Assembly (NCBI GenBank): GCA_963751095.1
Contig: CAVVTK010000009.1
Coordinates: forward strand, 911-64,910
DNA: 64,000 nucleotides
Direction: 5' to 3'
Source: an uncultured Holophagaceae bacterium
Lineage (GTDB): Bacteria > Acidobacteriota > Holophagae > Holophagales > Holophagaceae
Shown here: positions 1,038 through 44,088 of the stretch, in pieces
Layout of the letters: each line of letters starts with the position of its first letter
Position numbering within the stretch: position 1 is the stretch's first letter
The notes under the pieces: generated by a model
What the model saw: the letters and a program-made list of their open reading frames with translations, nothing else
Database searches by the model: none
Told to the model about the DNA's origin: nothing
Translations under genes and position numbers: made by a program

Positions 1038-2339
1038 ATGGACCGACTGGTGATCCAAGGTGGACATCCCCTGCGGGGGCGCATCCGGGTGTCGGGTGCC
1101 AAGAACGCGGCCCTGCCCTGCCTGGCGGCGGCGTTGCTGACCTCAGAACCGCTGGTCCTGTCCAACCTGCCCGCCGTGGCCGACATCCGCACCATGGTGA
1201 AGGTGCTGCAGGCCTTGGGCACGGAGGCTTCACTGGAAGCCCACCCCGATGGCTTCGAGCTCACCGCGAAGCTGGCCTGCGCCGGCTCGGAGGATCCCAA
1301 GGCCCCCTACGATCTGGTGAAGACCATGCGGGCCTCCATCCTGGTGCTGGGGCCCCTCCTCGCCCGCTTCGGCAGGGCCACGGTAAGCCTGCCCGGCGGC
1401 TGCGCCATCGGCGCGCGCCCCGTGAACCTGCACCTGGAAGCCCTGGAGCGCATGGGCGCCCGCATCGAGATCAGCCACGGCTACATCCACGCCTCCGTCA
1501 AGGGCCGCCTGAAGGCCATCGATCACACCTTCGAAAAGGTGAGCGTCGGCGCAACGGAAAACATCCTCATGGCCGCCGCCCTGGCTGAAGGCAACACCAT
1601 CCTGCGCAACGCCGCCCTGGAGCCCGAGATCGGCGACCTGGCCCAGCTCCTGGTGGAGATGGGCGCGCAGATCGAGGGCATCGGCACGGGCACCCTCACC
1701 ATCACGGGCGTCGCGGAACTGCACGGCTGCGAGCACGCCGTCATCGCCGACCGCATCGAGGCCGGCACCTACCTCTGCGCGGTGGCCGCCGCCTGCGGCG
1801 ATGTGGTGCTGGACCGCTGCGAGCCCGAGCACCTGCGCTCGCTGCTGGATCTGCTCGAGCGCTCCGGCTGCGTCATCACGGAGCGGGAGGGCCAGGATGG
1901 CCGCCAGCTGCGCATCCAGCGGGAGTGCGGCCAAAAGCTGCGCTCCAAGGATGTCACCACCCTGCCCTTCCCCGGTTTCCCCACGGACCTGCAGGCCCAG
2001 GTCATGGCCGTGATGACCCAGGCCTGTGGCATCAGCGTCATCAACGAAGGCATCTTCGAGAACCGCTTCCAACACGCCATGGAGCTGGAGCGCCTCGGCG
2101 CCAACCTGCGCACGGACGGCCACACGGCCATCGTGGCGGGCCCCGCTGAGTTGACCGGCTGCACCGTGATGGCCACAGACCTGCGCGCCAGCGCCGCCCT
2201 GGTCATCGCCGGCCTGGTGGCCGCGGGCGAAACCATCGTGGACCGCATCTACCACCTGGACCGCGGCTATTCCGGCCTGGAAAAGAAGCTCCAGGGCGTC
2301 GGCGCCCGCATTGAGAGGGTCGGTGGCGGTCGGGTCTAG
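1038..2339 (+). CDS. murA: UDP-N-acetylglucosamine 1-carboxyvinyltransferase
   Basis: SGAKNAALP, LPGGCAIGARP, PGFPTDLQ, TDLRAS and HLDRGY motifs; ATG at 1038 after GGAG. Confidence 0.97.
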   Translation: MDRLVIQGGHPLRGRIRVSGAKNAALPCLAAALLTSEPLVLSNLPAVADIRTMVKVLQALGTEASLEAHPDGFELTAKLACAGSEDPKAPYDLVKTMRASILVLGPLLARFGRATVSLPGGCAIGARPVNLHLEALERMGARIEISHGYIHASVKGRLKAIDHTFEKVSVGATENILMAAALAEGNTILRNAALEPEIGDLAQLLVEMGAQIEGIGTGTLTITGVAELHGCEHAVIADRIEAGTYLCAVAAACGDVVLDRCEPEHLRSLLDLLERSGCVITEREGQDGRQLRIQRECGQKLRSKDVTTLPFPGFPTDLQAQVMAVMTQACGISVINEGIFENRFQHAMELERLGANLRTDGHTAIVAGPAELTGCTVMATDLRASAALVIAGLVAAGETIVDRIYHLDRGYSGLEKKLQGVGARIERVGGGRV

Positions 2340-2822
2340 GTGGCAGGATCGTCCGCCTGAGTCGCCTGACATCTAGTCAGGCGGCTCTGCCCTGCGGGCA
2401 CCCGCGAACGATTCACCTGGACCGCGGCTATTCCGGCCTGGAAAAGAAGCTCCAGGGCGTCGGCGCCCGCATTGAGAGGGTCGGTGGCGGTCGGGTCTAG
2501 GTGGCAGGATCGTCCGCCTGAGTCGCCTGACATCTAGTCAGGCGGCTCTGCCCTGCGGGCACCCGCGAACGATTCACCTGGACCGCGGCTATTCCGGCCT
2601 GGAAAAGAAGCTCCAGGGCGTCGGCGCCCGCATTGAGAGGGTCGGTGGCGGTCGGGTCTAGGTGGCAGGATCGTCCGCCTGAGTCGCCTGACATCTAGTC
2701 AGGCGGCTCTGCCCTGCGGGCACCCGCGAACGATTCACCTGGACCGCGGCTATTCCGGCCTGGAAAAGAAGCTCCAGGGCGTCGGCGCCCGCATCGAGCG
2801 GGTAGGCGGCGGCAAGGTCTGA
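2253..2822. repeat. 161-bp tandem array (3 full units + terminal partial unit) containing the murA 3' end
   Basis: Units start at 2253, 2414, 2575 and 2736. Each is 87 bp of murA 3' end plus a 74-bp palindromic spacer; the last copy is a synonymous variant ending in TGA. Confidence 0.97.
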
Positions 2823-2830
2823 ATTGCGGA

Positions 2831-2929
2831 GACAGGATTAACAGGATCAGAAGCTGGATTTGCAGGATGCAAGCGGAGATTTGTTTCTCAAATCCTGTTA
2901 ATCAATCATTTCATCCTGTTAATCCTGTC
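2831..2929. repeat. AT-richer element bounded by a perfect 17-bp inverted repeat built from 9-bp units
   Basis: GACAGGATTAACAGGAT (2831-2847) / ATCCTGTTAATCCTGTC (2913-2929); extra partial copy at 2892-2903. Confidence 0.85.
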
Positions 2930-3005
2930 CATTGTTTTTCCGCTTTTCCCTGTGACGACCGCCACCCACCCGGTCGGTTACACTGAATTTACGATCGGGG
3001 GATCC

Positions 3006-3953
3006 ATGTTCGGCGAGATGAAGGTCTTTTCCGGGAGCAGCCACCCGGAGCTGGCGAGAGGCATCGCGACCCACATGGGCATGCCCCTGGGCCGGCTCAA
3101 GGTGACCCGCTTCTCGAACGAGAACATCAAGGTGAAGATCGAGGAGAACGTCCGCGAGGCGGACGTCTTCGTGATCCAGTCCTCCTGCCCCCCCGTCAGC
3201 GACAACCTGATGGAGATGCTGATCCTCATCGACGCGCTGAAGTTCGCCTCGGCCGCCCGCATCACCGCCGTCCTGCCCTACTTTCCCTACGCCCGCAGCG
3301 ACAAGAAGGACGAGGCGCGCATTTCCATCACCGCCCGCCTGGTGGCGGACCTGCTGGAGACCGCCGGCGCCGATCGCGTGCTGACCATGACCCTGCACGC
3401 GCCGCAGATCCTGGGCTTCTTCCGCAAGCCCGCGGACCAGCTGCTGGCCACGCCCATCCTCACCAACTACTTCCTGACCAAGGATCTCACCAACACCACG
3501 GTGGTGGCCACGGATGCCGGCGCCGCCAAGTTCGCCGGCCACTTCGCCAAGCGGCTGTCCGTGCCCATGGCCATCATCGACAAGCGCCGCTTCGACGACT
3601 CCGAGAAGGCCCAGAGCGTGGCGCTGATCGGCGACGTAAAGGGCCGCGACGCCATCATCTACGATGACGAGATCGCCACCGGCGGCTCCATCAAAGAGGC
3701 CGCCCGCATCCTCCGCGAGCTGGGCGCCAAGTCCGTGCGCGTGGGCGTCACGCATCCCGTGTTCTCGGGCAACGCCCTGGAGACCCTCAACTCCGCGAAC
3801 CTGGACGAGCTGGTGGTCACGGACAGCATCCCGGTATCCCCGGAGCGCGCCAAGGCCATGCCCTACCTCAAGGTGCTCTCCACCGCGGCGCTCTTCGGCG
3901 ATGCGATCCTGCGCATCCACGGGGGACGCAGCATCAGCGAGATGATGGACTGA
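3006..3953 (+). CDS. prs: ribose-phosphate pyrophosphokinase
   Basis: PYFPYARSDKK, LHAPQI.GFF, IIDKRR and DDEIATGGS motifs. Confidence 0.95.
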   Translation: MFGEMKVFSGSSHPELARGIATHMGMPLGRLKVTRFSNENIKVKIEENVREADVFVIQSSCPPVSDNLMEMLILIDALKFASAARITAVLPYFPYARSDKKDEARISITARLVADLLETAGADRVLTMTLHAPQILGFFRKPADQLLATPILTNYFLTKDLTNTTVVATDAGAAKFAGHFAKRLSVPMAIIDKRRFDDSEKAQSVALIGDVKGRDAIIYDDEIATGGSIKEAARILRELGAKSVRVGVTHPVFSGNALETLNSANLDELVVTDSIPVSPERAKAMPYLKVLSTAALFGDAILRIHGGRSISEMMD

Positions 3954-24257: not shown

Positions 24258-24332
24258 GGTCCCATCGTATAGCGGTTAGTACACCGCCCTCTCACGGCGG
24301 GAACAGGGGTTCGATTCCCCTTGGGACTACCA
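24258..24332 (+). tRNA. tRNA-Glu(CTC)
   Basis: Cloverleaf; CCGCC-CTCTCAC-GGCGG; GGTTCGATTCC; CCA end. Confidence 0.95.
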
Positions 24333-24888
24333 GCAACGGCCCGGCGCAAGCCGGGCCTTCTTCATGTCCCAGGGGGAATCGAAGTCCCAGCCAGCGCGCA
24401 GGTAGGGCCAGGCTCGGACAGCCTGGGGGGCTGTTCGAGCCGATCCGCCGCAGGCGGAGGCCCGTGCGCATGCTGGCGTGCGAATTCCCCTTGGGACTAC
24501 CAGCAACGGCCCGGCGCAAGCCGGGCCTTCTTCATGTCCCAGGGGGAATCGAAGTCCCAGCCAGCGCGCAGGTAGGGCCAGGCTCGGACAGCCTGGGGGG
24601 CTGTTCGAGCCGATCCGCCGCAGGCGGAGGCCCGTGCGCATGCTGGCGTGCGAATTCCCCTTGGGACTACCAGCAACGGCCCGGCGCAAGCCGGGCCTTC
24701 TTCATGTCCCAGGGGGAATCGAAGTCCCAGCCAGCGCGCAGGTAGGGCCAGGCTTGGACAGCCTGGGAGGCTGTTCGAGCCGATCCGCCGCAGGCGGAGG
24801 CCCGTGCGCATGCTGGCGTGCGAATTCCCCTTGGGACTACCAGCAACGGCCCGGCGCAAGCCGGGCCTTCTTCATGTCCCAAGGGGAA
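24314..24888. repeat. 170-bp tandem array (3 full units + partial) starting with the 3' 19 nt of tRNA-Glu
   Basis: Units start at 24314, 24484, 24654 and 24824 with ATTCCCCTTGGGACTACCA; near-identical. Confidence 0.97.
24338..24363 (+). terminator. terminator-like hairpin after tRNA-Glu (repeated in each unit)
   Basis: GGCCCGGC-GCAA-GCCGGGCC-TTCTTC. Confidence 0.6.
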
Positions 24889-25410: not shown

Positions 25411-26481
25411 ATGCGCATGCGTTGGTTCTGGACCCTTCCCCTGGCGGTGGCTGCGGCCATCATCTGGCTGAGCGCCCAGTCCCACTATCCGGGCGGCATC
25501 GAGCTGCCCTCCCCCCTGGACAAGGTGGCCCACGCCGCCGTGTTCGGAGCCCTCGCCTGGGCCCTGGATCTTGCTTTCCGGCACAGTCGCCCGGACTTGC
25601 CCATGTACCGGAGACACCTGCTGGTCTTCGGGATGGTGGCCGTGTTTGGCGCCACGGACGAGTGGCACCAGAGCTTCGTGCCCGGTCGGTCCTGTGAGTT
25701 CGGCGACTGGGTGGCGGATGCCCTGGGGGGTGGCCTCGGGCTCCTGGCCGGGAGCGTCCATCTCGTGTTCACGCGCCACCTTCAGGCGCTGTCCTGGTGG
25801 CGCGGCTCGGCACGGCGCTCTGATTCCTCCCGGGACCTGATCCTCGTTGCCGACCCCCACTGGGCGGTGGTGCTCACGGGCCTCGAAGCGACCACGACGA
25901 GCTTCCCCGAAGCCGACTGGCTCTTTCTCGGCGACGTGTTCGATGTGTGGGTGGGTATGCCCGGCATGGAGACGGCCACCCAGAAGGCCTTCCTCGACTG
26001 GGTTCAGGCCCGCAGAACCGCGGGCCGCTGGGTGGGGCTGTGGCTGGGCAACCGGGAGTATTTCCTCGAGCGGCATGCCTCCGGCTTCGACCTCATGGGC
26101 GAGGGCACCGGCGGCATGCTCGAAGGCGAGCCCCTGACCTGGGAACACGGCGATCTCGTCAACACCGCCGACCGGCAGTACCGGCTGTGGAATCTGGTCT
26201 CACGTTCCGGCCTCGTCTGGCTGCTGTTCCGGCTGATGCCCGGCGGTACCGCCCGCCGGGTGTCCGCCTGGATGGAACGGAAGCTCCGCACCACCAACAG
26301 CGCCTACAAGCTGGCCTTCCCGCGACGAGCCTTCCGCGCCGCCGCTGAAGCGCACCCGGGCGCGACCTTCCTCACCGGCCACTTCCACACCCACGAGGTC
26401 GAGGCCAACGGCATCGCCCTGCCCTGGGCCCACGAGGGGCGGTTCATGGTGTGGCGGGGCGGGAAGGTGGAGGAGCTTTAG
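25411..26481 (+). CDS. VanZ-like membrane domain fused to an LpxH-like metallophosphoesterase
   Basis: DKVAH...DEWHQSFVPGRS..DW.AD (VanZ); ADPH, LGDVFD, GNRE, EHGD and GHFH (LpxH-like). Confidence 0.8.
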   Translation: MRMRWFWTLPLAVAAAIIWLSAQSHYPGGIELPSPLDKVAHAAVFGALAWALDLAFRHSRPDLPMYRRHLLVFGMVAVFGATDEWHQSFVPGRSCEFGDWVADALGGGLGLLAGSVHLVFTRHLQALSWWRGSARRSDSSRDLILVADPHWAVVLTGLEATTTSFPEADWLFLGDVFDVWVGMPGMETATQKAFLDWVQARRTAGRWVGLWLGNREYFLERHASGFDLMGEGTGGMLEGEPLTWEHGDLVNTADRQYRLWNLVSRSGLVWLLFRLMPGGTARRVSAWMERKLRTTNSAYKLAFPRRAFRAAAEAHPGATFLTGHFHTHEVEANGIALPWAHEGRFMVWRGGKVEEL

Positions 26482-26699
26482 GCTTTAGGCTTCAGGCTTC
26501 AGGCTTCAGGCTTCAGGCTTCAGGCTTCAGGCTTCAGGCTTCAGGCTTCAGGGTACCTGATGGATGTTTGAGGTGGGCCGACGGCCCGCGCCAGGTTTTT
26601 TGAAGCCGTTCGGATGGGTCGGCGCCGAACTGAACCATTGGCGCCCCGCGCAGCAGGGCATCAGGAAGCTGTTCCTGAAGCCTGTGGCCTGAAGCCTAC
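26475..26699. repeat. heptamer microsatellite (GCTTYAG)x11 with inverted heptamer copies about 120 bp downstream
   Basis: Tandem at 26475-26551; CCTGAAG-CCTGTGG-CCTGAAG-CCTA at 26674-26698. Confidence 0.92.
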
Positions 26700-28017: not shown

Positions 28018-28092
28018 GGGCTGTCAGCTCTCAGAAAACGCGGGGCGAGCCGGCTCCTAGGCTGACAGCTGACAGCTGACAGCTGATAGCCC
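28018..28092. repeat. short element with heptamer (GCTGACA)n inverted arms
   Basis: GGGCTGTCAGCTCTCAG ... (GCTGACA)x3 GCTGATAGCCC. Confidence 0.8.
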
Positions 28093-43652: not shown

Positions 43653-43729
43653 GGGGTTGTAGCTCAGTCGGTTAGAGTGCCAGCCTGTCACGCTGGAAGT
43701 CGCGGGTTCGAGCCCCGTCAGCCCCGCCA
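43653..43729 (+). tRNA. tRNA-Asp(GTC)
   Basis: Cloverleaf; CCAGC-CTGTCAC-GCTGG; CCA end. Confidence 0.95.
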
Positions 43730-43761
43730 AAAAATGCGCCCAACCGGGCGCATTTTTTTTT
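43730..43761 (+). terminator. intrinsic terminator
   Basis: AAAAATGCGCCC-AACC-GGGCGCATTTTTTTTT. Confidence 0.9.
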
Positions 43762-43763
43762 GC

Positions 43764-44077
43764 GGCGGGGCTGCCGGGACTCGGGCCCGCGAGTGGGCTG
43801 GTCACACCGTCGTGGAGGCCCTCCAGTGGAGGGCCGGAGCAGGGGTGGCCAGACCGGCAGACGCAAGCCCGCAGGGCGCTGCGGCTGCGGTTCGAGCCCT
43901 CGACCGTGGGGGTCGGCGCGAGTGGCGGGGAACGGGGCTGCCGGGACTCGGGCCCGCCCCCGCAACGCATGCGTTGCGGGGATCCAGCGTCGAGTGGGCT
44001 GGTCACACCGTCGTGGAGGCCCTCCAGTGGAGGGCCGGAGCAGGGTGACCAGACCGGCAGACGCGAGCCAGAAGGGC
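43764..44077. repeat. two degenerate structured repeat units downstream of tRNA-Asp
   Basis: CGGGGCTGCCGGGACTCGGGCCCGC at 43766 and 43933; ~79-bp block at 43791 and 43992. Confidence 0.88.
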
Positions 44078-44088
44078 GCCGGCGCCCC

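Follow-up and report, generated by a model that had tools for sequence, protein, structure and literature searches.

How does an essential gene come to carry its own last codons four times over, with the final copy spelled in different codons? The question is raised by murA in a 64,000-nucleotide stretch of DNA, here called the window, from the genome of an uncultured Holophagaceae bacterium (G000; 73% complete). Counts for the genus and family use the other G-numbered genomes. We conclude that the 161-bp unit repeated behind this gene is very probably a non-autonomous element that was inserted there, whatever its exact kind. The original prediction had treated it as the special case of one essential gene; genome-wide repeat searches instead place the murA insert among about 20 of similar design at gene and tRNA ends in G000.

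The murA array

The target gene is murA (NCBIfam TIGR01072, 540 bits against a cut-off of 392.7), with prs downstream (Table 1). In the assembly sequence, three identical 161-bp units start at 2253, 2414 and 2575, each composed of an 87-nt murA end joined to 74 nt of spacer; the fourth murA end lies at 2736-2822. Sequence comparison bears out the predicted identical core, which occupies positions 1-59 of the unit in all four ends. Past position 59, copy 4 differs from copies 1-3 at 9 of 28 nt (unit positions 60, 64, 69, 72, 78, 79, 80, 86 and 87), and such clustering in the last 28 nt has a chance probability of 1.3e-5. The differences are almost all synonymous, as had been claimed, amounting to six synonymous codons (stop included) and one R/K exchange. 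Copy 4 had also been described as written in host-typical codons, which agrees with its CAI (0.73, versus 0.58 for the element-type end), although it nonetheless contains the rare codon GTA.

The spacer folds as described in the prediction, with z=-4.0 as RNA (0/200 shuffles) and z=-4.0 as DNA, and among four homologous spacers, changes on both sides occur at 2 of 32 consensus pairs. We found no second site for this spacer elsewhere in the G000 assembly and no terminator-like U-run or promoter-like site within 2200-3050. When 13 element loci were searched against Rfam, the tRNA genes alone matched and the spacers gave no match.

Table 1. Features of the murA array and of a second array in the window (positions within the 64,000-nucleotide stretch).
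Feature	Position	Strand	Remarks
murA	1038..2339	+	intact; element-type end GGGRV, TAG
Native 4 nt (CTAC) just upstream of junction	2249..2252	+	outside the repeated unit, matched by the arm
Gene-end copy 1 (active)	2253..2339	+	first 59 nt as in the displaced copy; 9 of the remaining 28 nt differ
Three-part arm	2333..2356	+	2333-2342, 2343-2346, 2347-2356
74-nt non-coding spacer, unit 1	2340..2413	+	outer stem, two hairpins
12-bp hairpin in unit 1 spacer	2359-2387		genus-wide ACATCNAGT apex
Small hairpin in unit 1 spacer	2388-2400		
Unit 2	2414..2574	+	identical to unit 1
Unit 3	2575..2735	+	identical to unit 1
Displaced murA end (GGGKV, TGA), native by comparison	2736..2822	+	
Separate dispersed palindrome, native flank marker	2831..2929	.	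directly behind murA also in element-free G067, G062, G012 and G021
prs (ribose-phosphate pyrophosphokinase)	3006..3953	+	
Second array, same design as that of murA	24314..24888	+	170-bp units from T-loop of tRNA-Glu (24258-24332); terminator, antisense arm, hairpins

Native and element-borne gene ends

In a tree of 390 nt of upstream murA sequence, G000 pairs with G067 (89/84, not starred) within a group that includes G062, G009 and G012. G067 is element-free and ends in GGGKV-TGA, its last 28 nt differ by 1 from copy 4 and by 8 from copies 1-3, and its murA continues into the same downstream palindrome as copy 4. Because this nearest empty relative is near-identical over the last 28 nt and shares the palindrome, copy 4 is the displaced native end of murA, the role that the prediction had assigned to it. 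The palindrome itself is built on a repeat of the GGATTAACA type, is scattered through G000 and many of its relatives, and belongs to a separate repeat family. The prediction had also looked to the ends of element-free relatives for a decision between the two versions. The empty sister genome with its GGGKV-TGA end agrees, but a GGGRV end in a relative is uninformative because the genus is polymorphic here, with empty murA ends reading RV before the stop in 19 of 30 cases and KV in 10.

The suggestion that the element carries its own selected version of the gene end was not supported as worded. Within positions 1-59, a host's active copy differs from its displaced one by 0, 2 and 1 nt in the three genomes that carry the murA element, and active copies from different murA hosts differ by 4-9 nt, so this part follows each host; the last 28 nt of the active copy in G000 lie three changes from a natural empty allele, that of G009. 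At guaA, the 5' part tracks the host in three of five hosts, and an element-specific codon is TAT in 5/5 active copies versus TAC in 5/5 displaced ones. On the simplest reading of these alleles, the gene-end copy would be the working allele of a former host, its 5' part overwritten by the current one.

The synonymous bias that the prediction drew from murA recurs at several loci. Synonymous codons outnumber non-synonymous ones by 36 to 1 at murA, acyl-CoA dehydrogenase, guaA, lepA and a glyoxalase-fold gene that we take to be hppD-like from its C-terminal motif. Across all 10 protein loci examined the figures are 55 and 14, against a chance expectation of 27% synonymous; two loci contribute 13 of the 14 non-synonymous codons, and three loci have no difference at all. 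Folding energies do not support the idea that the recoding serves the fold: swapping in the displaced end makes little difference at murA (-34.7 versus -34.1 kcal/mol), and seven loci show no consistent sign.

Distribution among related genomes

A homologous spacer is present in 3 of 133 family genomes, namely G000, G001 and G071 (i.e., 2 of the 132 others), with four further weak spacer matches of 23-27 nt left out of the count. These carry three, two and one murA units, respectively, and the two units of G001 differ from each other at 2 spacer or stop positions. A murA match was obtained in 111 of the 133 genomes, and of these only the three carriers and G095 possess a second murA end. Empty sites in most relatives and a variable number of units are what the prediction expected of a non-autonomous insert when it proposed comparing the murA-prs region. 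The larger islands that it offered as a further outcome are absent: none with a displaced murA end occurs in the 111 genomes, a search that a decayed displaced end would escape.

The three carriers share the same junction base in three different downstream contexts, each of them common to empty relatives, and grouping them as a single clade is rejected (p-AU 0.012, on the tree of 390 nt). In G095, which belongs to another genus, a different murA element is joined about 10 nt further on and has only the hairpin apex in common. Spacer identity among the carriers is 63-65 of 74 positions, while identity in upstream murA is 88-91% and at third positions 75-78%. Since spacer identity is not above murA identity, though above that of third positions, these values would be compatible with old vertical inheritance and many losses.

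Beyond the family set, the junction pattern gave 29 matches in GTDB, with the spacer in two titled Geothrix records only; these possibly duplicate counted genomes and were not added to the totals. The genome record of cultured Geothrix rubra (L245) has a two-unit murA array. A pattern scan of metagenomes returned two matches, both lacking the element context and ascribed to chance, and none of 62 pattern matches in a viral scan had the element layout on inspection. The murA-prs interval varies among relatives from about 70 bp to more than 3 kb and holds unrelated genes, making it an insertion hotspot.

Related inserts and hairpin modules

The protein targets of the inserts in G000 include guaA, lepA, uvrB, rpsT, and the genes for an acyl-CoA dehydrogenase, a biotin-carrier protein, a glutaredoxin-like protein and a hexapeptide-repeat protein, together with the glyoxalase-fold gene. 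About 10 tRNA genes are also targets, including the tRNA-Glu of the window. Other arrays in G000 show internal differences between units. In some cases, the copy taken as last belongs to an older element and has further decayed copies behind it, so the equation of last copy with native end needs checking case by case.

Stacked elements of different age lie behind the biotin-carrier and acyl-CoA dehydrogenase genes (L073 and L071, in G000:C18 and C13), their gene-end copies progressively decayed. In the window, the span 43653-44080 contains a tRNA-Asp with a stack of two elements behind it, both partly decayed; the stack includes an antisense arm and a hairpin capped by CCAGTGG. Heptamer tandem repeats also occur in the window, at 26475-26552 (11.1 copies) and 28061-28090 (4.3 copies).

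The ACATCNAGT-capped hairpin of the murA spacer recurs throughout the genus, at tRNA as well as protein targets, and most of the listed matches have perfectly paired stems; the raw count of the pattern is only modestly above its control. Two other modules are present in 66 and 80 of the 133 family genomes. Modules also stand alone or form 72-74-bp tandem arrays with no gene end. In G000, related modules make up 40 clusters. REP families are marked by many near-identical dispersed copies with a GT(A/G)G foot; the murA spacer starts with GTGG and has one site only. The duplicated segment often stops at the arm described below and thus spans one stem-loop.

In G017:C2 (L146), an element duplicates the apparent 5' start of uvrA, so gene starts may be targets too. 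A protein-gene target (L137, L165) has a junction like that of the tRNA T-loop, and the right end of the murA element together with the core also reads CGATTC. Retargeting from tRNA elements to protein genes is possible, although this is speculation from sequence likeness. A 226-bp array that looks related to the palindrome at 2831-2929 lies at G000:C11:125556 behind an ORF that resembles a GxxExxY nuclease.

The antisense arm

Many elements carry, just past the stop or terminator, a stretch that is antisense to the uninterrupted target and crosses the junction, a feature that is new and absent from the original prediction. In the murA unit, 2333-2342 is antisense to target positions +1 to +10, while 2347-2356 forms a stem with the right end of the same unit. 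Between them, 2343-2346 is looped out in the fold and antisense to native positions -1 to -4, with 3 of 4 matches in G000 and 4 of 4 in G071.

For the arm statistic, 9 of 15 targets in G000 were picked for a clear arm by their downstream pairing (lepA was kept at score 6). The next five bases of these arms make 30/45 Watson-Crick matches to the native upstream sequence versus 10/45 to the element's own end; the control means are 12.6 (random) and 14.2 (permuted), and 0 of 20,000 reach 30. The signal is carried by five tRNA targets, and the four protein targets alone reach 10/20 (p=0.058), partly through register shifts. No clear arm was found at six targets, namely acyl-CoA dehydrogenase, guaA, the BCCP-like gene, uvrB, rpsT and the element of G095.

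In 17 of 20 genomes with an element at the hexapeptide-protein gene, the arm is complementary to the four-fold degenerate third position of a Gly codon, across three states of that position; the tally was made by eye on 30 of 52 matching genomes, in which kin are not independent. A 3-nt bubble follows in this arm, and then 5-6 bases that match the native upstream sequence. Arm stubs are also seen behind some sites with no recognisable element (9/9 in 2 of 10). Covariation of arm and target could come from quasi-palindrome correction instead of function.

Candidate enzymes

The prediction recommended searching for integrases and HUH nucleases. G000 has five PF00589 recombinases, none of them on the contig of the array (C9), which agrees with the observation that no integrase is nearby. 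Its recombinase genes include XerC- and XerD-like ones, an integron integrase and two phage-type integrases. The HUH side of that search yielded no Y1 enzyme and an interrupted IS91-type Y2 transposase. Profile searches of G000, at 73% completeness, found no Y1/RAYT (PF01797) or TnpA, no reverse transcriptase (PF00078), no IS110 DEDD recombinase (PF01548) and no serine resolvase (PF00239).

PF01797 is likewise absent from G001 and G071 and is present in 8 of 61 other genomes of the genus, where the Y2 transposase occurs in 16 and the family-B module in 47. The integron integrase is found in all three carriers and is over the cut-off in 41 of the 61. Its association with the element is one of co-occurrence only; it is a candidate enzyme and was undetected in some well-assembled genomes that have related modules (G003 and G081). 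No gene-bearing version of the element was found. There is also no repeat-flanked candidate gene in G000, since no two module clusters lie less than 3.9 kb apart on a contig. One Y1 copy in G068, among five identical copies, lies about 230 bp from a ACATCNAGT hairpin.

The Y2 transposase gene of G000 is interrupted by an 82-nt hairpin insert (L167:2041-2122, in G000:C13) related to the module of the guaA element. The chromosomal integron of G000 extends over C10:18292-33051 and comprises intI and a cassette array, in which a 445-bp cassette-like unit is repeated about three times.

Discussion

The order of parts is native upstream sequence, gene-end copy, arm, hairpins and displaced end. We consider it an even call that the unit, a hairpin without genes that supplies the working 3' end of murA, travels as a folded single-stranded circle mobilised in trans and that its arm sets the insertion point. 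The unit would leave as a circle of gene end and spacer and fold back on itself, the arm pairing with both the gene-end copy and the right end of the circle, while 3-5 nucleotides that match the target just upstream would stay looped out. A host or other trans-acting single-strand recombinase, with the integron integrase as leading candidate and XerCD next, would then exchange one strand, and replication would resolve the product. The left junction would recreate the target, allowing repeated rounds or unequal crossing-over to build tandem arrays. Once inserted, the element's copy would serve as the live gene end under protein selection, so that after transfer it would differ mainly at synonymous sites, and recombination within the shared stretch would swap its 5' part for the sequence of the current host.

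Junctions have no shared consensus across targets, and the tetranucleotides differ between them. More tentatively, and short of an even chance, the inserts may represent a class of self-guided minimal mobile DNA: hairpin elements of 70-130 nt whose three-part arm would recognise an empty target on both sides of the insertion site. On that view, a single enzyme with no sequence preference could place them in tRNA T-loops or at the gene ends of murA, guaA, lepA, uvrB or rpsT, each time restoring the gene and moving synonymous gene-end alleles from one species to another. The family is large in this genus and apparently undescribed. We found no description of the class in the open literature, and the available text of the Geobacter and Pelobacter genome papers lists multicopy sequences without this model.

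Other accounts of the array differ in how much they would change. One concerns the number of units and not the element: a single unit may have been unrolled three times by the assembler, which we consider unlikely, if still a real chance. In its favour, the three units are identical and the 59-nt core turns even one unit into an assembly-graph loop. The read data consist of short-read contigs only, neither of which gives the copy number; X2 has the exact spacer and junction, the 191-nt piece in X1 (161+30) fits one unit, several or a circle, and either run may be the source of the assembly. Since the units of G001 differ and other arrays in G000 vary internally, tandem growth is real for the class. 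Rather unlikely, in our view, is a REP/BIME-like capture, by which a dispersed hairpin repeat would settle behind the stop and a nick nearby would lead to copying of the gene end by rolling-circle replication or slippage, with divergence arising through later homologous exchange between relatives and the arm as a by-product of fold-back correction. Modules that stand alone or in arrays free of gene ends fit such an origin, as does a duplicated segment that often ends at the arm, and the available text of PMC2817692 describes four cases in which the 3' end of rayt is built into BIME units and proposes rolling-circle amplification. However, Y1/RAYT is missing from the three carriers and rare in the rest of the genus (8/61), the Y2 enzyme is in 16/61 others and its G000 copy is interrupted, the junction base is identical in three separated lineages, and the arms match sequence outside the duplicated segment.

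The model of the original prediction, a classical attP-only satellite, would have a minimal double-stranded circle inserted by a murA-specific, phage-type tyrosine integrase supplied from a larger island. The layout does match the attL/attR pattern of islands that restore their targets, the available text of PMC8627217 documents ICEs at tRNA genes, guaA, radC and dusA, the tRNA junctions fall in the T-loop, and G000 has two phage-type integrases. We nevertheless judge this improbable: the 111 genomes with a murA match include no such island, about 20 unrelated targets with common modules would need many integrases, and a double-stranded attP offers no reason for an antisense arm. Least probable to us is an old immobile duplication, inserted once in an ancestor, passed down vertically with gene conversion keeping its copies alike, deleted from most lineages through direct-repeat recombination and recently amplified here. 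Spacer divergence fits host divergence, the copies follow the host in their 5' part, and direct repeats delete easily. Yet a dead displaced copy should gather non-synonymous changes, and 36 of 37 changed codons at the five loci are synonymous; the element would have to have been lost from 58 of the 61 other genomes of the genus, less those with gaps; and murA of G095 holds a second, different element.

If the arm sets the target, as we have proposed for a gene-less insert moved in trans, a small DNA fold would program site-specific insertion without a gene of its own, and it would be worthwhile to isolate the responsible enzyme as a retargetable integrase. This would also explain the long-noted tandem repeats linked to tRNA genes and provide a route for exchanging the last 10-45 codons of core genes between species. 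The self-guided reading, if true, would amount to natural DNA-guided, retargetable integration. Duplicated gene ends can also mislead assembly and annotation. Empty murA alleles are plentiful and the record of cultured Geothrix rubra has the array, which together offer a testable case.

Several known systems share parts of this design. Integron cassettes recombine in single-stranded form, folded with some bases looped out; they make circles and stack in tandem at a regenerated site. The elements resemble them in folding, looped-out bases and stacking, and the carriers have IntI; in contrast, the targets here are gene ends and not attI, the junctions show no attC core consensus (judged by eye), and intI lies on contig C10. 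The tyrT terminal repeats of E. coli are tandem units of about 170-180 bp, each containing the tRNA 3' end. To our knowledge, no arm or mobility has been described for such arrays, and unlike them, the present elements also occupy protein genes, with synonymous allele replacement.

Target-restoring ICEs, IMEs and prophages, as far as the available text of PMC8627217 describes them, insert at a conserved gene end, restore the gene with an element copy and leave a displaced fragment downstream, and guaA and tRNA T-loops are targets of theirs as well as of the present elements. A restored target, a displaced distal direct repeat and empty sites in relatives are all found here, while an own or adjoining integrase and a larger autonomous element at the site are not; in place of an island there are 74 nt of cargo, hairpin modules common to unrelated targets and an arm across the junction. 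REP, BIME and REPIN sequences with RAYT, in the portion of PMC2817692 available, are similar in their short hairpins near stops, tandem amplification, non-autonomy and inclusion of a gene 3' end in the repeat. By comparison, the unit here replaces a working gene end, its arms differ per target, and neither RAYT, the cognate Y1 HUH enzyme of such systems, in the carriers nor a transposase gene flanked by the repeats was found.

In IS608, a 4-nt guide base-pairs with target sequence directly upstream of the cut, engineered longer pairing retargets the element, and the intermediate is a single-stranded circle, according to the available text of PMC5934647. The elements described here likewise have bases complementary to the target upstream of the junction (30/45 versus 14.2 permuted; p=0.058 for protein targets alone). 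They differ from IS200/IS605 elements in that neither TnpA nor TnpB is present, no fixed tetranucleotide target is used and the linear guide pairing varies per target, whereas IS608 has no copy of a target gene. The element resembles target-restoring islands in how it works, BIMEs in its amplification and IS608 in its guide-like pairing, yet it lacks a defining feature of each.
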